Shown: positions 16,038 through 63,724 of the stretch, piece by piece
Layout of the letters: every line of letters starts with the position of its first letter
How positions within the stretch are numbered: the stretch's first letter is position 1
From: Escherichia coli
Lineage (GTDB): Bacteria; Pseudomonadota; Gammaproteobacteria; Enterobacterales; Enterobacteriaceae
Direction: 5' to 3' (one strand)
Length of the DNA stretch: 64,000 nucleotides
Assembly: GCF_003334815.1 (NCBI RefSeq)
Contig: NZ_QOWO01000006.1
Notes under the pieces: model-generated
Database searches by the model: none
Told to the model about the DNA's origin: nothing
Seen by the model: the letters and a program-made list of their open reading frames with translations, nothing else
Position numbers and translations under genes: made by a program

Positions 16038-16373
16038 ATGGATAAAGAACGCATCATTCAGGAATTTGTGCCCGGCAAACAGGTCACACTGGCGCATCTC
16101 ATCGCGCATCCCGGTGAGGAACTGGCGAAGAAAATCGGCGTTCCGGATGCGGGCGCAATTGGCATTATGACGCTAACTCCCGGCGAAACGGCGATGATCG
16201 CCGGTGATTTAGCGCTGAAAGCCGCTGATGTGCATATCGGTTTTCTCGACCGATTCAGCGGTGCATTGGTGATTTATGGCTCGGTGGGCGCAGTAGAAGA
16301 AGCGTTATCACAAACCGTCAGCGGTTTAGGTCGCTTATTAAATTATACGCTTTGTGAAATGACCAAAAGTTAA
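16038..16373 (+). CDS. eutS: Ethanolamine microcompartment shell protein EutS (111 aa)
   Basis: Track ORF trimmed to the ATG at 16038 ([14 protein letters not shown]); BMC-domain protein, first gene of the eut operon. Confidence 0.9.
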
Positions 16374-16385
16374 TACGAGGCATTC

Positions 16386-16865
16386 ATGAAACGAATTGCG
16401 TTTGTGGGTAGCGTCGGGGCAGGAAAAACAACGTTATTTAATGCGTTGCAGGGGAATTATACCCTCGCCAGAAAAACACAGGCCGTGGAATTTAATGATA
16501 AGGGCGATATTGATACGCCGGGTGAATATTTTAACCATCCCCGCTGGTATCACGCCTTAATTACCACGCTACAGGATGTAGACATGCTGATCTTTGTCCA
16601 TGGCGCAAATGACCCGGAAAGTCGGTTGCCTGCCGGGTTGCTGGATATTGGCGTCAGCAAACGGCAAATCGCCGTCATCAGTAAAACGGACATGCCAGAT
16701 GCTGACGTCGCCGCAACGCGAAAGTTATTGCTTGAGACGGGCTTCGAAGAGCCGATTTTCGAGCTAAACAGCCACGACCCGCAAAGCGTGCAGCAACTGG
16801 TGGATTATCTGGCATCTCTCACCAAACAGGAGGAAGCAGGTGAAAAAACTCATCACAGCGAATGA
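16386..16865 (+). CDS. eutP: EutP (P-loop GTPase/acetate kinase-like)
   Basis: Walker A GSVGAGKTTL; position in eut operon. Confidence 0.9.
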   Translation: MKRIAFVGSVGAGKTTLFNALQGNYTLARKTQAVEFNDKGDIDTPGEYFNHPRWYHALITTLQDVDMLIFVHGANDPESRLPAGLLDIGVSKRQIAVISKTDMPDADVAATRKLLLETGFEEPIFELNSHDPQSVQQLVDYLASLTKQEEAGEKTHHSE

Positions 16866-17541
16866 TATTCGTGAAGCACACGCGCGCGGCGAACAGGCAA
16901 TGTCCGTGGTTCTGCGCGCCAGCATTATTACCCCGGAAGCCCGTGAAGTGGCGGATCTACTGGGTTTTACCATCACCGAATGTGATGAATCGATCCCGGT
17001 AACGGCGTCCGTGCCCGCCAGCGTGCCAGCCGACAAAACCGAAAGCCAGCGCATCCGCGAAACCATCATTGCCCAGCTGCCGGAAGGCCAGTTTACCGAA
17101 AGCCTGGTCGCACAGCTGATGGAAAAAGTGATGAAGGAAAAACAGTCGCTGGAGCAGGGCGCAATGCAGCCGAGCTTCAAATCGGTGACCGGCAAAGGCG
17201 GCATCAAAGTGATTGATGGCAGTAGCGTCAAGTTTGGTCGTTTCGACGGCGCAGAGCCGCATTGCGTGGGCTTGACTGATCTTGTGACCGGAGACGACGG
17301 CAGCAGCATGGCCGCCGGTTTTATGCAGTGGGAGAACGCATTCTTCCCGTGGACCCTGAACTACGACGAAATCGACATGGTGCTGGAAGGGGAGCTGCAT
17401 GTTCGCCACGAAGGCCAAACCATGATCGCCAAAGCAGGCGACGTGATGTTTATCCCGAAAGGCTCCAGCATCGAATTTGGTACGACATCCAGCGTGAAAT
17501 TCCTGTATGTCGCCTGGCCGGCTAACTGGCAATCCCTATGA
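16840..17541 (+). CDS. eutQ: EutQ (cupin-fold acetate kinase); GTG start overlapping eutP by 26 nt
   Basis: MKKLITANDIREAHARGEQ; AGGAGG RBS upstream of the GTG. Confidence 0.9.
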   Translation: MKKLITANDIREAHARGEQAMSVVLRASIITPEAREVADLLGFTITECDESIPVTASVPASVPADKTESQRIRETIIAQLPEGQFTESLVAQLMEKVMKEKQSLEQGAMQPSFKSVTGKGGIKVIDGSSVKFGRFDGAEPHCVGLTDLVTGDDGSSMAAGFMQWENAFFPWTLNYDEIDMVLEGELHVRHEGQTMIAKAGDVMFIPKGSSIEFGTTSSVKFLYVAWPANWQSL

Positions 17542-18341
17542 AAGATTTCATCACCGAAGCATGGCTAAGAGCGAACCATACGCTCAGCGAAGGCGCAGAG
17601 ATCCATCTCCCTGCGGACAGTCGCCTGACGCCCTCTGCCCGGGAGTTGCTGGAAAGCCGCCATCTGCGCATCAAGTTTATTGACGAGCAGGGCCGCCTGT
17701 TTGTTGACGATGAACAGCAGCAGCCGCAGCCCGTTCATGGGCTGACCAGTAGCGATGAACATCCGCAGGCGTGCTGCGAACTGTGTCGCCAGCCGGTGGC
17801 AAAAAAGCCGGATACGCTGACTCACCTGTCGGCGGAAAAAATGGTCGCCAAAAGCGATCCGCGTCTGGGTTTTCGCGCGGTTCTCGACAGCACCATTGCG
17901 CTGGCAGTGTGGCTGCAAATTGAACTGGCGGAACCGTGGCAGCCGTGGCTGGCGGATATCCGTTCGCGTCTTGGCAACATTATGCGCGCCGATGCGCTGG
18001 GGGAACCGCTGGGCTGCCAGGCGATTGTCGGGCTTTCTGACGAAGATCTGCATCGGCTTTCTCATCAGCCGCTGCGCTATCTCGACCACGATCATCTGGT
18101 GCCGGAAGCCAGCCACGGGCGCGATGCTGCGTTGCTCAATCTGCTACGCACCAAAGTGCGGGAAACCGAAACCGTAGCGGCGCAGGTCTTTATCACCCGC
18201 AGCTTTGAAGTATTACGCCCGGACATTTTGCAGGCGCTGAACCGCCTTTCGAGCACGGTCTACGTGATGATGATCCTGAGCGTAACGAAGCAGCCGCTAA
18301 CGGTGAAGCAGATCCAACAACGACTGGGGGAAACGCAATGA
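17538..18341 (+). CDS. eutT: EutT corrinoid adenosyltransferase
   Basis: Sequence and operon position; 4-nt overlap with eutD. Confidence 0.9.
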
Positions 18342-19354
18342 TTATTGAACGTTGTCGTGAACTGGCGTTGCGAGCGCCCGCCAGAGTGGTTTTTCCGGAT
18401 GCGTTAGACCAACGTGTGCTGAAAGCCGCGCAATATTTACATCAACAAGGTCTGGCAACGCCCATTCTGGTCGCCAATCCGTTTGAACTTCGTCAGTTTG
18501 CGCTCAGTCACGGCGTGGCGATGGACGGGCTACAGGTGATTGATCCGCATGGCAACCTCGCAATGCGGGAAGAATTTGCTCATCGCTGGCTGGCCCGCGC
18601 GGGCGAAAAAACGCCGCCGGATGCGCTGGAAAAACTTACCGACCCTCTGATGTTCGCCGCAGCAATGGTCAGCGCCGGTAAAGCGGATGTCTGTATCGCG
18701 GGCAACCTCTCTTCCACGGCAAATGTGCTGCGTGCCGGATTACGCATTATCGGCTTGCAGCCAGGCTGTAAAACGCTCTCTTCCATTTTCCTGATGTTGC
18801 CACAGTACAGCGGCCCGGCGTTGGGCTTTGCCGATTGCAGCGTGGTGCCACAGCCGACGGCGGCGCAGCTGGCGGATATCGCGCTTGCCAGTGCCGAAAC
18901 CTGGCGCGCCATCACCGGAGAAGAGCCGCGCGTGGCGATGCTGTCGTTTTCCAGCAATGGTAGCGCCCGTCACCCCTGTGTTGCTAACGTCCAGCAGGCG
19001 ACAGAAATCGTCCGTGAGCGCGCACCAAAGCTGGTGGTGGATGGCGAGTTACAGTTTGACGCCGCCTTCGTGCCGGAAGTGGCGGCGCAAAAAGCGCCTG
19101 CCAGCCCGCTACAGGGCAAGGCCAATGTGATGGTTTTTCCGTCGCTGGAAGCCGGAAATATTGGTTACAAAATCGCACAACGACTCGGCGGATATCGTGC
19201 CGTCGGGCCACTGATACAAGGACTTGCCGCGCCGATGCACGATCTCTCTCGTGGTTGTAGCGTGCAGGAAATTATCGAGCTGGCGCTGGTGGCAGCTGTG
19301 CCGCGTCAGACAGAAGTGAACCGCGAAAGCAGTTTACAAACACTGGTTGAATGA
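18338..19354 (+). CDS. eutD: EutD phosphotransacetylase
   Basis: PTA-family sequence; operon position. Confidence 0.92.
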
Positions 19355-19392
19355 ACGGTCCCGTTCTGGACCCTGATAAAGAGGAAAGCACA

Positions 19393-19686
19393 ATGGAAGC
19401 ATTAGGAATGATCGAAACCCGGGGCCTGGTTGCACTGATTGAGGCTTCTGACGCGATGGTGAAAGCTGCGCGCGTCAAGCTGGTTGGTGTTAAGCAGATT
19501 GGCGGCGGCCTGTGTACTGCCATGGTTCGTGGTGATGTTGCAGCCTGTAAAGCCGCGACCGATGCAGGTGCCGCAGCGGCACAGCGTATCGGCGAGCTGG
19601 TATCTGTACACGTTATCCCGCGTCCGCACGGCGACCTGGAAGAAGTCTTCCCGATCGGCCTGAAAGGCGATAGCAGCAACCTGTAA
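19393..19686 (+). CDS. eutM: EutM major BMC shell protein (97 aa)
   Basis: Track ORF trimmed to [26 protein letters not shown], a canonical BMC-H domain. Confidence 0.93.
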
Positions 19687-19792
19687 TCACCCTGTGTGAC
19701 GTCGATTCGGGCGTCACGCTCTCTCCTTTTTCATTTTACCTTCTGCGGAGGGTAGGGGGAGCTTTTACCTGAAATACGCCACGGAGGCGGGT

Positions 19793-20080
19793 ATGAAACT
19801 GGCAGTCGTCACTGGACAAATTGTTTGTACCGTACGCCATCACGGACTGGCGCATGACAAATTGCTGATGGTGGAAATGATTGATCCACAAGGTAATCCT
19901 GACGGGCAATGCGCCGTCGCCATCGACAATATTGGCGCGGGAACCGGGGAGTGGGTGTTACTGGTGAGTGGCAGTTCCGCCCGCCAGGCGCATAAAAGCG
20001 AAACGTCACCGGTCGATCTGTGCGTGATTGGCATTGTCGATGAGGTGGTGTCTGGCGGTCAGGTAATTTTCCACAAATAA
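19793..20080 (+). CDS. eutN: EutN BMC vertex (pentamer) protein
   Basis: EutN/CcmL-family sequence MKLAVVTGQIVCTVRH. Confidence 0.92.
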   Translation: MKLAVVTGQIVCTVRHHGLAHDKLLMVEMIDPQGNPDGQCAVAIDNIGAGTGEWVLLVSGSSARQAHKSETSPVDLCVIGIVDEVVSGGQVIFHK

Positions 20081-20091
20081 GGCAGAACATC

Positions 20092-21495
20092 ATGAATCAA
20101 CAGGATATTGAACAGGTGGTGAAAGCGGTACTGCTGAAAATGCAAAGCAGTGACACGCCGTCCGCCGCCGTTCATGAGATGGGCGTTTTCGCGTCCCTGG
20201 ATGACGCCGTTGCGGCAGCCAAAGTCGCCCAGCAAGGGTTAAAAAGCGTGGCAATGCGCCAGTTAGCCATTGCTGCCATTCGTGAAGCAGGCGAAAAACA
20301 CGCCAGAGATTTAGCGGAACTTGCCGTCAGTGAAACCGGCATGGGGCGCGTTGAAGATAAATTTGCAAAAAACGTCGCTCAGGCGCGCGGCACACCAGGC
20401 GTTGAGTGCCTCTCTCCGCAAGTGCTGACTGGCGACAACGGCCTGACCCTAATTGAAAACGCACCCTGGGGCGTGGTGGCTTCGGTGACGCCTTCCACTA
20501 ACCCGGCGGCAACCGTAATTAACAACGCCATCAGCCTGATTGCCGCGGGCAACAGCGTCATTTTTGCCCCGCATCCGGCGGCGAAAAAAGTCTCCCAGCG
20601 GGCGATTACGCTGCTCAACCAGGCGATTGTTGCCGCAGGTGGGCCGGAAAACTTACTGGTTACTGTGGCAAATCCGGATATCGAAACCGCGCAACGCTTG
20701 TTCAAGTTTCCGGGTATCGGCCTGCTGGTGGTAACCGGCGGCGAAGCGGTAGTAGAAGCGGCGCGTAAACACACCAATAAACGTCTGATTGCCGCAGGCG
20801 CTGGCAACCCGCCGGTAGTGGTGGATGAAACCGCCGACCTCGCCCGTGCCGCTCAGTCCATCGTCAAAGGCGCTTCTTTCGATAACAACATCATTTGTGC
20901 CGACGAAAAGGTACTGATTGTTGTTGATAGCGTAGCCGATGAACTGATGCGTCTGATGGAAGGCCAGCACGCGGTGAAACTGACCGCAGAACAGGCGCAG
21001 CAGCTGCAACCGGTGTTGCTGAAAAATATCGACGAGCGCGGAAAAGGCACCGTCAGCCGTGACTGGGTTGGTCGCGACGCAGGCAAAATCGCGGCGGCAA
21101 TCGGCCTTAAAGTTCCGCAAGAAACGCGCCTGCTGTTTGTGGAAACCACCGCAGAACATCCGTTTGCCGTGACTGAACTGATGATGCCGGTGTTGCCCGT
21201 CGTGCGCGTCGCCAACGTGGCGGATGCCATTGCGCTAGCGGTGAAACTGGAAGGCGGTTGCCACCACACGGCGGCAATGCACTCGCGCAACATCGAAAAC
21301 ATGAACCAGATGGCGAATGCTATTGATACCAGCATTTTCGTTAAGAACGGACCGTGCATTGCCGGGCTGGGGCTGGGCGGGGAAGGCTGGACCACCATGA
21401 CCATCACCACGCCAACCGGTGAAGGGGTAACCAGCGCGCGTACGTTTGTCCGTCTGCGTCGCTGTGTATTAGTCGATGCGTTTCGCATTGTTTAA
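20092..21495 (+). CDS. eutE: EutE CoA-acylating acetaldehyde dehydrogenase
   Basis: Aldehyde dehydrogenase family sequence; operon position. Confidence 0.95.
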   Translation: MNQQDIEQVVKAVLLKMQSSDTPSAAVHEMGVFASLDDAVAAAKVAQQGLKSVAMRQLAIAAIREAGEKHARDLAELAVSETGMGRVEDKFAKNVAQARGTPGVECLSPQVLTGDNGLTLIENAPWGVVASVTPSTNPAATVINNAISLIAAGNSVIFAPHPAAKKVSQRAITLLNQAIVAAGGPENLLVTVANPDIETAQRLFKFPGIGLLVVTGGEAVVEAARKHTNKRLIAAGAGNPPVVVDETADLARAAQSIVKGASFDNNIICADEKVLIVVDSVADELMRLMEGQHAVKLTAEQAQQLQPVLLKNIDERGKGTVSRDWVGRDAGKIAAAIGLKVPQETRLLFVETTAEHPFAVTELMMPVLPVVRVANVADAIALAVKLEGGCHHTAAMHSRNIENMNQMANAIDTSIFVKNGPCIAGLGLGGEGWTTMTITTPTGEGVTSARTFVRLRRCVLVDAFRIV

Positions 21496-23519: not shown

Positions 23520-23521
23520 AT

Positions 23522-23705
<184 letters not shown>

Positions 23706-23735
23706 ATAAATAACAACTAACAGGGAGTAAAGGCG

Positions 23736-24962
23736 ATGGGAATTAACGAAATCATCATGTACATCATGATGTTCTTTATGCTGATAGCTGCCGTAGACAG
23801 GATCCTGTCGCAGTTCGGCGGTTCTGCTCGTTTCCTCGGTAAGTTCGGTAAAAGTATCGAAGGATCAGGCGGTCAGTTCGAAGAAGGCTTTATGGCAATG
23901 GGCGCACTGGGCCTGGCGATGGTCGGTATGACCGCGCTGGCACCGGTACTGGCTCACGTTCTCGGGCCGGTAATTATTCCGGTTTACGAAATGCTCGGCG
24001 CTAACCCATCGATGTTCGCCGGAACACTGCTGGCGTGCGATATGGGCGGCTTCTTCCTCGCCAAAGAGCTGGCGGGCGGCGACGTAGCCGCGTGGCTATA
24101 CTCTGGGTTAATTCTCGGGTCGATGATGGGGCCAACGATTGTGTTTTCCATTCCGGTGGCGCTCGGCATTATCGAACCTTCTGACCGTCGTTATCTGGCG
24201 CTCGGCGTGCTGGCGGGCATTGTGACCATTCCGATTGGTTGTATCGCTGGTGGTCTGGTTGCTATGTACTCCGGTGTGCAGATCAACGGCCAGCCGGTGG
24301 AATTCACTTTCGCCCTGATCCTGATGAACATGATCCCGGTGATCATTGTTGCGATTCTGGTGGCGCTGGGGCTGAAATTCATCCCGGAAAAAATGATCAA
24401 CGGCTTCCAGATCTTCGCCAAATTCCTCGTTGCATTGATCACCCTCGGTCTTGCCGCTGCGGTAGTGAAATTCCTGCTTGGCTGGGAACTGATCCCCGGT
24501 CTGGATCCTATCTTTATGGCCCCTGGCGATAAACCCGGTGAGGTGATGCGCGCCATTGAAGTTATCGGTTCTATCTCCTGCGTTCTGTTAGGGGCGTATC
24601 CGATGGTGCTGCTGCTGACTCGCTGGTTTGAAAAACCGCTGATGAGCGTCGGTAAAGTACTGAATATGAACAACATCGCGGCAGCCGGCATGGTGGCAAC
24701 GCTTGCCAACAACATCCCGATGTTCGGCATGATGAAGCAGATGGATACCCGCGGCAAAGTCATCAACTGCGCCTTCGCCGTTTCCGCTGCTTTCGCCCTG
24801 GGCGACCACTTAGGCTTCGCCGCTGCCAACATGAACGCCATGATCTTCCCGATGATTGTCGGCAAGTTGATCGGCGGCGTAACGGCGATTGGCGTGGCGA
24901 TGATGCTGGTGCCAAAAGAAGACGCGACCGCGACTAAAACCGAAGCGGAGGCACAATCGTGA
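23736..24962 (+). CDS. eutH: EutH ethanolamine permease
   Basis: Polytopic membrane protein; operon position. Confidence 0.93.
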   Translation: MGINEIIMYIMMFFMLIAAVDRILSQFGGSARFLGKFGKSIEGSGGQFEEGFMAMGALGLAMVGMTALAPVLAHVLGPVIIPVYEMLGANPSMFAGTLLACDMGGFFLAKELAGGDVAAWLYSGLILGSMMGPTIVFSIPVALGIIEPSDRRYLALGVLAGIVTIPIGCIAGGLVAMYSGVQINGQPVEFTFALILMNMIPVIIVAILVALGLKFIPEKMINGFQIFAKFLVALITLGLAAAVVKFLLGWELIPGLDPIFMAPGDKPGEVMRAIEVIGSISCVLLGAYPMVLLLTRWFEKPLMSVGKVLNMNNIAAAGMVATLANNIPMFGMMKQMDTRGKVINCAFAVSAAFALGDHLGFAAANMNAMIFPMIVGKLIGGVTAIGVAMMLVPKEDATATKTEAEAQS

Positions 24963-26362
24963 ACACTCGCCAGCTATTGAGCGTCGGTATCGATATCGGC
25001 ACCACCACCACCCAGGTGATTTTCTCCCGGCTGGAGCTGGTTAACCGTGCGGCGGTGTCGCAGGTGCCGCGCTACGAATTCATTAAACGCGAAATTAGCT
25101 GGCAAAGTCCGGTGTTCTTTACCCCTGTCGATAAACAGGGCGGTTTAAAAGAAGCGGAACTGAAAACCTTAATACTCGAGCAATATCATGCTGCGGGTAT
25201 TGAGCCGGAAAGCGTTGATTCTGGTGCCATCATCATCACCGGTGAAAGCGCGAAAACCCGCAATGCTCGCCCGGCGGTGATGGCGCTCTCTCAGTCGCTG
25301 GGCGATTTTGTCGTTGCCAGCGCCGGGCCGCACCTCGAATCCGTGATCGCCGGTCACGGAGCCGGGGCACAAACCCTTTCTGAACAACGGCTGTGTCGGG
25401 TACTGAATATCGACATCGGCGGTGGCACCGCGAACTACGCCCTGTTCGATGCCGGAAAAATCAGCGGCACTGCCTGCCTCAACGTCGGTGGTCGCCTGCT
25501 GGAAACCGACAGCCACGGGCGCGTGGTTTACGCTCATAAACCGGGGCAGATGATTGTGGATGAGTGCTTCGGTGCAGGCACCGACGCCCGTTCGCTGACC
25601 GGCGCGCAGCTGGTGCAGGTGACCCGGCGGATGGCAGAACTGATTGTCGAAGTGATTGACGGAACGCTCTCACCGCTCGCGCAGGCATTGATGCAAACCG
25701 GTTTGCTGCCCGCAGGTGTTACGCCCGAAATCATTACGCTTTCTGGCGGCGTGGGCGAATGTTATCGCCACCAGCCCGCCGACCCGTTCTGTTTTGCCGA
25801 TATTGGCCCGCTGCTGGCAACTGCGCTGCATGACCATCCGCGCCTGCGTGAGATGAACGTACAGTTTCCGGCGCAAACCGTGCGCGCCACGGTGATTGGC
25901 GCGGGCGCGCATACCCTTTCGCTCTCTGGCAGCACAATCTGGCTTGAGGGCGTACAACTGCCGCTGCGCAATTTGCCGGTGGCGATCCCGATTGATGAAA
26001 CGGATCTGGTGGGGGCCTGGCAACAGGCGCTGATTCAGCTGGATCTTGATCCCAAAACTGACGCGTACGTGCTGGCGCTTCCCGCCTCGCTGCCTGTGCG
26101 TTACGCCGCGGTACTGACGGTCATCAACGCGTTGGTCGATTTCGTCGCGCGTTTTCCGAATCCGCATCCCCTGCTGGTGGTGGCCGGGCAGGACTTTGGT
26201 AAAGCTCTGGGCATGTTGTTGCGCCCACAGCTACAACAACTCCCGTTGGCAGTCATTGACGAAGTGATTGTCCGCGCGGGGGACTATATCGACATTGGTA
26301 CGCCTCTTTTTGGCGGATCGGTTGTGCCGGTGACGGTGAAATCACTCGCATTTCCTTCCTGA
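24959..26362 (+). CDS. eutA: EutA ethanolamine ammonia-lyase reactivase (GTG start)
   Basis: MNTRQLLSVGIDIGTTTTQVIFSRL. Confidence 0.93.
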   Translation: MNTRQLLSVGIDIGTTTTQVIFSRLELVNRAAVSQVPRYEFIKREISWQSPVFFTPVDKQGGLKEAELKTLILEQYHAAGIEPESVDSGAIIITGESAKTRNARPAVMALSQSLGDFVVASAGPHLESVIAGHGAGAQTLSEQRLCRVLNIDIGGGTANYALFDAGKISGTACLNVGGRLLETDSHGRVVYAHKPGQMIVDECFGAGTDARSLTGAQLVQVTRRMAELIVEVIDGTLSPLAQALMQTGLLPAGVTPEIITLSGGVGECYRHQPADPFCFADIGPLLATALHDHPRLREMNVQFPAQTVRATVIGAGAHTLSLSGSTIWLEGVQLPLRNLPVAIPIDETDLVGAWQQALIQLDLDPKTDAYVLALPASLPVRYAAVLTVINALVDFVARFPNPHPLLVVAGQDFGKALGMLLRPQLQQLPLAVIDEVIVRAGDYIDIGTPLFGGSVVPVTVKSLAFPS

Positions 26363-26373
26363 GGGAACGACTT

Positions 26374-27735
26374 ATGAAACTAAAGACCACATTGTTCGGC
26401 AATGTATATCAGTTTAAGGATGTAAAAGAGGTGCTGGCTAAAGCCAACGAACTGCGTTCGGGGGATGTGCTGGCGGGCGTCGCAGCGGCAAGCTCACAGG
26501 AGCGCGTGGCGGCAAAGCAGGTGTTGTCGGAAATGACCGTAGCGGACATCCGCAATAATCCGGTGATTGCCTATGAAGATGACTGCGTGACGCGGCTGAT
26601 TCAGGACGATGTTAACGAAACGGCCTACAACCAGATTAAAAACTGGAGCATCAGCGAACTGCGTGAGTATGTGCTGAGCGATGAAACCAGCGTGGACGAC
26701 ATTGCCTTTACCCGCAAAGGGCTGACCTCGGAAGTGGTCGCGGCGGTAGCGAAGATTTGCTCCAACGCGGACCTGATCTACGGCGCGAAGAAAATGCCGG
26801 TAATCAAAAAGGCCAATACCACCATCGGTATTCCGGGCACCTTTAGCGCCCGTTTGCAGCCAAATGACACCCGTGACGACGTGCAAAGTATCGCCGCGCA
26901 AATCTACGAAGGGCTTTCCTTCGGGGTGGGCGATGCGGTGATCGGCGTTAACCCGGTGACTGACGACGTGGAAAACTTAAGCCGCGTGTTGGATACCATC
27001 TATGGCGTGATCGACAAATTCAACATCCCAACTCAGGGCTGTGTACTGGCGCACGTCACCACCCAGATCGAAGCGATCCGTCGTGGCGCACCGGGCGGGC
27101 TGATTTTCCAGAGTATCTGTGGCAGCGAAAAAGGGCTGAAAGAGTTTGGCGTGGAGCTGGCGATGCTCGACGAAGCGCGCGCAGTGGGCGCGGAGTTCAA
27201 CCGTATCGCCGGGGAAAACTGCCTCTACTTCGAAACCGGACAAGGCTCTGCGCTATCCGCTGGCGCTAACTTCGGCGCAGACCAGGTAACGATGGAAGCA
27301 CGTAACTACGGGCTGGCGCGTCATTACGATCCGTTTATCGTCAACACCGTGGTCGGCTTTATTGGGCCGGAGTATCTCTACAACGACCGCCAGATTATCC
27401 GTGCTGGCTTAGAAGATCACTTTATGGGCAAGCTGAGCGGCATCTCTATGGGCTGTGACTGCTGTTATACCAACCACGCTGACGCTGACCAGAACCTCAA
27501 CGAAAACCTGATGATCCTGCTCGCCACCGCAGGCTGCAACTACATCATGGGGATGCCGCTGGGTGATGACATCATGCTCAACTACCAGACCACCGCATTC
27601 CACGATACCGCCACTGTGCGTCAGTTACTCAACCTGCGCCCGTCACCGGAGTTTGAACGCTGGCTGGAAAGCATGGGCATTATGGCAAACGGTCGCCTGA
27701 CCAAACGGGCGGGCGATCCGTCACTGTTCTTCTGA
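26374..27735 (+). CDS. eutB: EutB ethanolamine ammonia-lyase large subunit
   Basis: MKLKTTLFGNVYQFKDVKEVLAKANELRSGD; begins 12 bp after the eutA stop. Confidence 0.96.
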   Translation: MKLKTTLFGNVYQFKDVKEVLAKANELRSGDVLAGVAAASSQERVAAKQVLSEMTVADIRNNPVIAYEDDCVTRLIQDDVNETAYNQIKNWSISELREYVLSDETSVDDIAFTRKGLTSEVVAAVAKICSNADLIYGAKKMPVIKKANTTIGIPGTFSARLQPNDTRDDVQSIAAQIYEGLSFGVGDAVIGVNPVTDDVENLSRVLDTIYGVIDKFNIPTQGCVLAHVTTQIEAIRRGAPGGLIFQSICGSEKGLKEFGVELAMLDEARAVGAEFNRIAGENCLYFETGQGSALSAGANFGADQVTMEARNYGLARHYDPFIVNTVVGFIGPEYLYNDRQIIRAGLEDHFMGKLSGISMGCDCCYTNHADADQNLNENLMILLATAGCNYIMGMPLGDDIMLNYQTTAFHDTATVRQLLNLRPSPEFERWLESMGIMANGRLTKRAGDPSLFF

Positions 27736-29825: not shown

Positions 29826-29870
29826 CCTGTCGGAGGTGCCGGGTGTCCTACAACACCCGGCATTAACATC

Positions 29871-30923
29871 ATGAAAAAGACCCGTACAGCCAATTTGCAC
29901 CATCTTTATCATGAACCCTTACCCGAAAACCTGAAGCTCACGCCGAAGGTCGAAGTGGATAATGTTCATCAACGACAGACAACGGATGTCTATGAACATG
30001 CTTTAACGATTACCGCCTGGCAGCAGATTTACGATCAGCTGCATCCGGGCAAGTTTCATGGTGAATTTACGGAAATTCTACTCGATGATATTCAGGTTTT
30101 TCGTGAATACACCGGTCTGGCGCTGCGTCAGTCGTGCCTGGTCTGGCCGAACTCGTTCTGGTTTGGCATTCCGGCGACGCGCGGTGAGCAGGGATTTATC
30201 GGTTCGCAATGTCTGGGAAGCGCGGAAATCGCCACCCGCCCTGGTGGCACTGAATTTGAACTGAGCACGCCGGATGATTACACGATCCTGGGCGTGGTGC
30301 TTTCTGAAGATGTCATCACCCGGCAGGCTAACTTTTTGCATAACCCGGATCGGGTATTACATATGTTGCGTAACCAGTCGGCGCTGGAAGTGAAAGAGCA
30401 GCATAAAGCCGCGCTGTGGGGCTTTGTCCAACAGGCGCTGGCGACGTTTTGCGAGAATCCGGAAAATCTCCATCAGCCTGCAGTGCGAAAAGTGCTGGGG
30501 GATAATTTGCTAATGGCGATGGGGGCCATGCTGGAAGAAGCGCAACCAATGGTGACGGCGGAAAGCATCAGTCATCAGAGTTACCGTCGATTGCTTTCCC
30601 GCGCCCGTGAATATGTGCTGGAAAACATGTCCGAACCGGTGACGGTGCTGGATTTGTGTAATCAACTGCATGTCAGCCGCCGCACGCTACAAAACGCGTT
30701 TCACGCTATTTTAGGCATTGGCCCGAACGCGTGGCTGAAACGCATTCGCCTGAACGCCGTACGCCGCGAACTGATAAGTCCGTGGTCGCAAAGTATGACG
30801 GTAAAAGACGCCGCCATGCAGTGGGGATTCTGGCATCTGGGGCAATTTGCCACGGATTACCAGCAGCTGTTTTCCGAGAAGCCGTCACTGACGCTGCATC
30901 AGCGGATGCGGGAGTGGGGGTGA
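29871..30923 (+). CDS. eutR: EutR AraC-family activator of the eut operon
   Basis: C-terminal AraC-type HTH; last gene of the operon. Confidence 0.93.
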
Positions 30924-63537: not shown

Positions 63538-63564
63538 AAAAAAGCGCCTTTAGGGCGCTTTTTT
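63538..63564. terminator. Bidirectional terminator downstream of xapR (copy A); an identical copy B lies at 63694-63720 next to tRNA-Lys
   Basis: AAAAAA-GCGCC-ttta-GGGCGC-TTTTTT. Confidence 0.65.
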
Positions 63565-63724
63565 ACATTGGTGGGTCGTGCAGGATGACTCGCTTCGCTC
63601 GCCCTTCGGGCCGTCGCCGCGAGCGGCTCCGTTGTTTCGCTGCGCTCAACTCAAACCTGCTGCAGGTTCGAATCTTTGAGTATCGCAGATAGTAAAAAAG
63701 CGCCTTTAGGGCGCTTTTTTACAT

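Follow-up and report, generated by a model that had tools for sequence, protein, structure and literature searches.

A conserved stem-loop in the eutM–eutN spacer of Escherichia coli as a candidate intercistronic stabiliser and/or leaky attenuator

A microcompartment shell contains many hexamers and very few vertex pentamers, and a wrong ratio between the two yields elongated or open shells. Loss of eutN in Salmonella (ΔeutN) gives elongated Eut assemblies (PMC12487888). An earlier note on this locus contrasted abundant EutM hexamer with rare EutN pentamer, and proteomics agrees, with EutM at 96 and EutN at 1 (PMC11334477). In eut, adjacent genes of one operon deliver a ratio of about 100:1. 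What, then, does the DNA between eutM and eutN encode, and how much of the ratio might it account for?

The window (the whole 64,000-nt stretch of E. coli DNA that was analysed) carries the eut operon on its + strand. Open reading frame lists place eutS at about 16038–16373, eutP at 16386–16865, eutQ at 16840–17541, eutT at 17538–18341, eutD (annotated pta) at 18338–19354 and eutE at 20092–21495, all on the + strand. Beyond eutE the order is eutJ, eutG, eutH, eutA, eutB, eutC, eutL, eutK and eutR, the last gene, which ends at 30923. The coding sequences of eutM (19393–19686, +; major BMC-H shell hexamer) and eutN (19793–20080, +; vertex pentamer) are supported by the same lists and by the RefSeq annotation of E. 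coli DNA that is identical (100% for eutM). The 901 bases around the feature are 100% identical to many RefSeq E. coli chromosomes, in which the eut genes are annotated and the eutM–eutN spacer carries no annotated feature. Junctions in the operon mostly overlap or span 20 nt or less; the only long ones are eutM–eutN (106 nt), eutG–eutH (216 nt) and eutK–eutR (45 nt). The end of eutA (26362) and the start of eutB (26374) are directly adjacent in the window (region 24959–27735). K-12 strains have the CPZ-55 prophage between these two genes, and the window is therefore probably of non-K-12 origin.

The spacer and its predicted structures

The eutM–eutN spacer occupies 19687–19792, immediately after the eutM stop codon (TAA, 19684–19686, +). 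Folding identifies a hairpin, P1, at 19694–19719 (+), which begins 7 nt 3′ of the stop codon. Its 10-bp stem pairs GUGUGACGUC (19694–19703) with GGCGUCACGC (19710–19719), includes six G-C pairs and closes a hexaloop, GAUUCG. The conserved core of the stem is 8 bp long (19696–19703 with 19710–19717). The earlier note had recognised the inverted repeat as GTGACG (19696–19701) and CGTCAC (19712–19717), and both arms are present; its reading of a 6-bp stem with an 11-nt loop gives way to 10 bp and a 6-nt loop.

P1 is predicted to fold at −17.4 kcal/mol, a z-score of −4.79, and 200 dinucleotide shuffles yielded no structure of equal stability. Comparable stability is found in only 0.11% of 30-nt windows (22 clusters) across the 64-kb window. 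Pair probabilities in P1 are 0.89–1.0 when it is folded in a 261-nt context. The window contains a single match to the pattern GTGACGYC-N(3-30)-GRCGTCAC, where shuffled sequence predicts 0. P1 is well beyond chance.

P1 is followed by a G-free, pyrimidine-rich tract, UCUCUCCUUUUUCAUUUU (19720–19737, +), the first part of which forms the 5′ strand of the outer stem of a second hairpin. This hairpin, P2 (19721–19761, +), is present in both the MFE and centroid structures, has the loop UGCG and is itself followed by CUUUUAC. Its outer stem pairs CUCUCCU (19721–19727) with GGGGGAG (19755–19761), and its inner stem pairs UACCUUC (19737–19743) with GAGGGUA (19748–19754). With the eutM coding RNA included in the fold, the inner stem keeps a probability of 0.88–1.0 and the outer stem only about 0.2. 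The T-rich run CCTTTTTCATTTT lies at 19725–19737, which is 7 nt past CGTCAC and 5 nt past the full P1 stem, closer than the roughly 10 nt given previously. The "T-rich tract" thus belongs for the most part to a single strand of P2.

Folded as a whole, the spacer reaches −43.5 kcal/mol (z = −3.0); besides P1 and P2, the fold has a small hairpin displaying the Shine-Dalgarno sequence of eutN. This last hairpin, GCC-ACGGA-GGC, belongs to the eutN translation initiation region (19778–19795, +), with GGAGG at 19783–19787 and the AUG at 19793–19795. Between P2 and the initiation region is a segment, CUUUUACCUGAAAUAC (19762–19777, +), that is unpaired in the folds and predicted to be single-stranded; it is conserved in an alignment of the type-A spacers described below. 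Within it, UACCUGAA is invariant in all type-A spacers, including those of Buttiauxella and Entomohabitans. The segment is possibly an entry site for an endonuclease. Its GC|UUU fits the loose RNase E motif RN|WUU.

We found no promoter on either strand of the spacer in a promoter scan; the sole nearby match, at 19854–19881 inside eutN, is at chance level. A small open reading frame or leader peptide is ruled out by the absence of a start codon in frame. Pairing between the CU tract and the eutN Shine-Dalgarno sequence is absent from the computed ensemble.

Several known identities for P1 were considered and rejected. Covariance-model searches of Rfam over 19000–20500 returned 0 matches at E <= 10. 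The REP consensus (of the GCCGGATG...CTTATCCGGCCTAC type) is absent from both P1 and P2, which excludes a REP/BIME element. P1 is also not a dispersed repeat: 5,408 of 5,426 E. coli genomes have just one copy of the spacer (search at E <= 10; median one place per genome), and the P1 motif occurs once per locus, always at the eutM–eutN junction. A DNA-level site such as that of CRP (TGTGA-N6-TCACA) does not fit arms spaced 14 nt apart in E. coli and 5–25 nt elsewhere. An ANTAR antiterminator target would consist of two neighbouring hairpins with a conserved hexaloop apiece; P1 has an unconserved loop of 5–25 nt and P2 the tetraloop UGCG. Literature searches found no described stem-loop or terminator between eutM and eutN.

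Six clusters of P1-like stability fall within the eut operon, four of them in its three long spacers. Both clusters of the eutG–eutH spacer are REP elements. This spacer (23520–23735, 216 nt) is a BIME in which a REP pair is tandemly duplicated about 100 nt apart; GGCGGATAAGGCGTTCACGCCGCATCCGCC, for example, occurs at 23575–23604 and 23675–23704. RNA levels in strain LF82 are 3-fold higher for eutH than for eutG (106 versus 35 and 514 versus 168 RPKM; PMC6379400). REPs usually favour the upstream gene; this order runs the other way, hinting at either an internal promoter or a difference in stability. The eutK–eutR spacer contains a very stable hairpin, GUGCCGGGUGU...ACACCCGGCAU (29835–29864, −20.7 kcal/mol), which lacks a U tract. 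Pairing in it ends 8 nt upstream of the eutR start codon (29871), and the predicted structure may affect eutR read-through or translation. Elsewhere in the window, a bidirectional terminator-like hairpin with T runs on either side, GCGCCTTTAGGGCGC, occurs in two identical copies 156 nt apart (63544–63558 and 63700–63714); the copies adjoin a tRNA-Lys/tRNA-Val/tRNA-Val cluster on the minus strand (63725–64001).

Conservation of P1 and P2

A scan for EutN in one genome per species identified 48 loci, and the eutM–eutN spacer was extracted from 42 species. All 42 have a spacer of 52–211 nt with a strong fold (−0.34 to −0.53 kcal/mol per nt). Two architectures dominate, which we call type A (with P1) and type B (with REP elements). 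Type A is found in four Escherichia species, the C. freundii complex, the Citrobacter sp. R56 group, K. spallanzanii, Buttiauxella, Entomohabitans and Yokenella. Type B is found in Salmonella, K. pneumoniae, K. oxytoca, K. michiganensis, K. grimontii, C. amalonaticus, C. koseri, C. sedlakii, Pseudocitrobacter and Pluralibacter. Klebsiella is thus split, with four of five sampled species REP-type and K. spallanzanii type A. Type B spacers contain one to three REP elements and neither P1 nor P2, and only the eutN ribosome-binding sequence is kept. This distribution suggests that REPs replaced P1 in the type B genera.

P1 starts 5–9 nt past the stop codon in type A spacers. The core GUGACGYC/GRCGUCAC is invariant across 20 type-A spacers except at one pair, which is C-G in nine, U-G in six and U-A in five. 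The first pair of P1 changes from G-C to A-U in Yokenella. The loop varies from 5 to 25 nt, and loop sequences are unrelated; such hypervariable spacing of the arms argues for an RNA stem and against a dimeric DNA-binding site.

The 16-nt P1 core is identical at 15 of 16 positions between E. coli and Buttiauxella or Entomohabitans, and the four-fold degenerate sites of eutM and eutN are 45–53% identical in the same comparisons. Between E. coli and Citrobacter, four-fold degenerate sites of the flanking genes are 62–66% identical. In sampled E. coli strains P1 is invariant and flanking positions vary. Judged by this sequence comparison, P1 is under purifying selection.

P2 shows compensatory changes in four of seven inner and four of seven outer pairs, with species variants such as ACCUUC/GAGGGU, GUUCUC/GAGAGC and GCCCUC/GAGGGC. 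Taking the structure as a whole, pairing holds in 91.7% of cells, compared with 43–60% when partners are slid by one to three columns, and the observed covariation score was reached by 0 of 500 shuffles.

Two E. coli strains carry larger changes at this junction. Strain 90-1 has an IS911 element in the spacer just past P2, with CTT duplicated (L054, 1580–2860), which puts about 1.3 kb between eutN and P1/P2. In strain EC931, a deletion joins a truncated eutM to a truncated eutE, removing the spacer and eutN (L003, 3094–3917), and both fused genes are annotated as pseudogenes.

Terminator scores and expression across the junction

One explanation of P1 is a leaky intrinsic (Rho-independent) terminator, in which P1, possibly together with P2 and its UUUU, releases some RNA polymerases before eutN. 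A simple consensus scan ranks 19694–19719 as the top terminator-like site in the 15–25 kb region, and the P1 stem is GC-rich with a hexaloop. The same scan, however, returned 12 sites in total against 11.8 by chance. P1 has the GC-rich, short-loop stem of 5–14 bp expected of a canonical intrinsic terminator and lacks the adjoining U-rich tract; tracts containing U follow both hairpins, but the P1 tail, UCUCUCCUU, has no U run beside the stem. The d'Aubenton-Carafa score of P1 is d = −20.1, with a tail score nT of 2.0, where terminators are called at d > 0. For P2, counted with its UUUU tail, the score is about −18 to −42; terminators at operon ends in this window range from +5 to +45. The T-rich tract therefore does not look like a functional terminator tail, and it is conserved mainly as a P2 strand.

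The comparison across species points the same way. The best terminator score in the spacer is below zero in 40 of 42 species, and Yokenella and the REP-type spacers have no U tract. P1 of Buttiauxella noackiae, with a near-canonical tail and d = +4.5, is on the side of termination. Because the stem-loop is kept while terminator scores are negative, the conserved property is the stable stem-loop rather than a hairpin with a U tract.

Published expression data allow the consequences to be bounded. In W3110 grown on ethanolamine, quantitative proteomics (iBAQ) gives EutQ 100, EutM 96, EutL 39, EutB 37, EutE 27 and EutC 24, followed by EutS 11, EutD 10, EutK 8, EutG 7, EutP 7 and EutN 1 (PMC11334477). 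EutN is thus about 1% of EutM and about 4% of EutE, the product of the next gene. The downstream products EutE, EutB and EutL (27–39) also exceed the upstream products EutD and EutP. Set against EutM at 96, EutE, EutB and EutL imply that transcript attenuation at P1 explains about 3-fold at most; these downstream proteins are far above EutN, so the remaining difference between EutM and EutN is specific to eutN. An attenuator that sets the EutM:EutN ratio, as first proposed, is at odds with these values.

RNA-seq of the AIEC strain LF82 gives the following RPKM values in minimal medium and with bile salts: eutT 13 and 83, eutD 108 and 357, eutM 55 and 177, eutN 5 and 62, eutE 14 and 149, eutJ 13 and 147 (PMC6379400). 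The step from eutM to eutN is the largest adjacent drop in this operon (11-fold and 2.9-fold), in data of low expression and unstated strandedness. We regard the step at the P1 junction as suggestive; with bile salts, eutE (149) and eutJ (147) come back nearly to the level of eutM (177), leaving little net attenuation. The eutM–eutN spacer of APEC O1 is identical to that of the window. APEC O1 presumably shares a phylogroup with LF82, and the LF82 spacer is therefore probably identical too. RNA-seq of EHEC reports fold changes only, and these are equal on both sides of the junction (PMC6199705).

No sense-strand RNA 3′ end was found at the spacer in MG1655 Term-seq, in which eut was uninduced (Adams et al. 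2021). The same non-inducing data contain an antisense RNA 3′ end in the 3′ part of eutM, at about 19616 on the minus strand (MG1655 coordinate 2572217, + strand; Adams et al. 2021, supplementary file 1). This places an antisense transcript across, or with its start close to, the eutM–eutN spacer; no convincing antisense promoter was found within the spacer.

Intrinsic termination would fit the LF82 drop at eutN. It fits less well with eutE and eutJ RNA and downstream protein, which are not below those of upstream genes, and together with the negative scores this makes a leaky intrinsic terminator unlikely. Of the original proposal of a weak attenuator, what survives is a stable, conserved hairpin between the genes for the commonest and the scarcest shell proteins, at the position of the largest LF82 drop; a terminator-like tail is absent.

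Explanations of the spacer

The limit specific to eutN raises the alternative that the spacer acts on translation. Its structure could stop ribosomes that finish eutM from re-initiating at eutN, with the eutN site occluded either locally or through long-range pairing, so that EutN is made at a small, fixed fraction of EutM. The protein levels, with EutN so far below both EutM and EutE, suit such a limit. Opening the eutN site is predicted to cost 11–13 kcal/mol, one of the highest values in the operon, against a minimum of 5–6 kcal/mol for eutM. Protein abundance (iBAQ) tends to fall as this cost rises (rho = −0.59, p = 0.045, n = 12), a weak and post hoc relation. In addition, CCACGGAGGCGGGTATG is kept even in spacers otherwise occupied by REPs. 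A fold that extends into the eutM coding RNA predicts a 17-bp helix between eutM codons 74–81 (the VIPRPHG codons; 19613–19633, +) and 19777–19796, the eutN Shine-Dalgarno/AUG region, with probability 0.84–1.0 and −28.0 kcal/mol (top 0.28% of background windows). This weakly supported helix is kept only in Escherichia, some Citrobacter and K. spallanzanii, with no compensatory changes seen. It is lost without compensation in C. werkmanii, C. portucalensis and C. braakii, and is also lost in Salmonella (−13 to −16 kcal/mol), Klebsiella and Buttiauxella. Ribosomes on the heavily translated eutM would moreover hold it open. We therefore treat the long-range helix as a weak, lineage-limited possibility and a minor rival. 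A translational insulator or repressor, which also leaves the conservation of the P1 stem unexplained, seems doubtful as the main role of the spacer.

The degree of sequence conservation could instead reflect specific recognition, in which P1, alone or together with P2 and UACCUGAA, serves as a regulated switch through binding of a protein or sRNA or cleavage by RNase III. Recognition would explain why the stem sequence is invariant beyond what pairing alone demands: seven of eight core pairs never vary across genera in which synonymous sites are near saturation, and UACCUGAA is equally invariant in type-A spacers. The P1 loop is hypervariable, however, no Rfam family matches even at E <= 10, no candidate partner is known, and the loops do not suit the ANTAR two-hexaloop rule. 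Many eut-proficient genera also lack the module and have generic REPs at the junction. We consider such recognition highly unlikely. A broader version, that P1, P2 and UACCUGAA form a dedicated, sequence-specific enterobacterial eut RNA element (a protein, sRNA or RNase III site, or a switch) that fixes hexamer:pentamer stoichiometry, is improbable; in it, the CU-rich strand would possibly toggle, pairing now with its G-rich partner and now with the Shine-Dalgarno sequence of eutN, or the long-range helix would cooperate. At the other extreme, P1 might be a neutral relic, for example a decayed palindromic insertion, in a spacer that tolerates IS911 in one strain and wholesale replacement by REPs in other genera. 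This is hardly credible given a core that is 15/16 identical where four-fold degenerate sites are about 50% identical, the presence of compensatory changes, and the invariance of P1 among sampled E. coli strains whose flanks vary.

The explanation that we favour, with middling confidence, is that P1 is a non-REP intercistronic stabiliser and/or leaky attenuator that holds eutM mRNA a few-fold above downstream mRNA. On the polycistronic eut transcript, P1 would follow the eutM stop codon after 7 nt, and P1 and P2 together would make the spacer a structured, untranslated region that uncouples eutN from eutM. As documented for REP/BIME elements and for hairpins of selective RNA processing and stabilisation, the stem-loop would block 3′-to-5′ exonucleases, so that the upstream segment containing eutM outlives the downstream RNA, and it may add some leaky, probably factor-assisted, termination. 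Either the barrier or the termination would leave eutM mRNA a few-fold above eutN mRNA. P1 alone cannot explain a protein ratio of roughly 100:1 and is one contributor only; reaching about 100:1 would need an extra limit specific to eutN, most plausibly at translation initiation. The structure expected of a stabiliser hairpin is present, namely a stable stem-loop 3′ of the cistron for the most abundant shell protein, EutM; the stabilising or attenuating activity itself we infer. On the other side stand the recovery of eutE and eutJ in LF82 under bile salts, the downstream protein levels above those of EutD and EutP, and two further points. The P1 stem is closer to invariant in sequence than a generic barrier demands. 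REPs located at most 15 nt from a stop codon reportedly lower expression of the upstream gene, a result attributed to Liang, Rudd and Deutscher (2015); if this effect applied to P1, it would work against eutM.

Operons with an internal REP/BIME element, such as malE–malF, offer the closest comparison. Like these elements, P1 is a stable intercistronic stem-loop directly past the more highly expressed upstream gene, and REPs fill this very junction in Salmonella, Klebsiella and several Citrobacter, as well as the eutG–eutH junction in the window. P1 differs in that its sequence is single-copy and inherited vertically with the operon rather than dispersed. In yjdM–yjdN, the element REP325 acts as an exonuclease barrier that stabilises the upstream mRNA and as a partial, partly Rho-dependent attenuator, and tandem gene pairs with a REP are biased towards upstream expression (bioRxiv 10.64898/2026.03.23.713779). 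Protective structures more generally reshape mRNA ratios in E. coli operons (PMC5927463). In the cip-cel operon of the C. cellulolyticum cellulosome, stem-loops 3′ of abundant cistrons set complex stoichiometry (PMC4423207). As there, the eut hairpin is 3′ of the cistron for the most abundant structural subunit and a minor subunit gene is downstream; unlike there, downstream eut genes are not uniformly lower, and the eutM hairpin is known from sequence rather than from mapped processing. The Rhodobacter puf and E. coli pap operons likewise use selective RNA processing and stabilisation hairpins to set stoichiometry.

Other systems are more distant. The intra-operon attenuator of rplL–rpoB makes a partial stop between abundant and less abundant products; P1 is unlike it in having no adequate U tract; its terminator score is −20. 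In the MS2 coat–replicase system, the downstream ribosome-binding site pairs with an upstream coding segment. The predicted pairing of the eutN ribosome-binding site with a eutM coding segment resembles this arrangement, but its conservation stops at Escherichia and some Citrobacter, and it shows no covariation. The EutV/ANTAR-controlled terminators of Enterococcus and Listeria are also eut-locus hairpins, and they modulate read-through (PMC5821096), whereas enteric eut is controlled by EutR and has no eutV/W partner.

P1 is most likely a conserved, unannotated member of the well-known class of intercistronic hairpins, engaged in ordinary operon fine-tuning. Mechanisms of this class (intercistronic hairpin or REP) are textbook ones, and the effect is likely to be no more than a few-fold. 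The spacer is usually deleted when Eut shells are rebuilt in synthetic operons. As a conserved, structured segment, it would provide a mutable handle for testing the RNA-level share of the EutM:EutN ratio.
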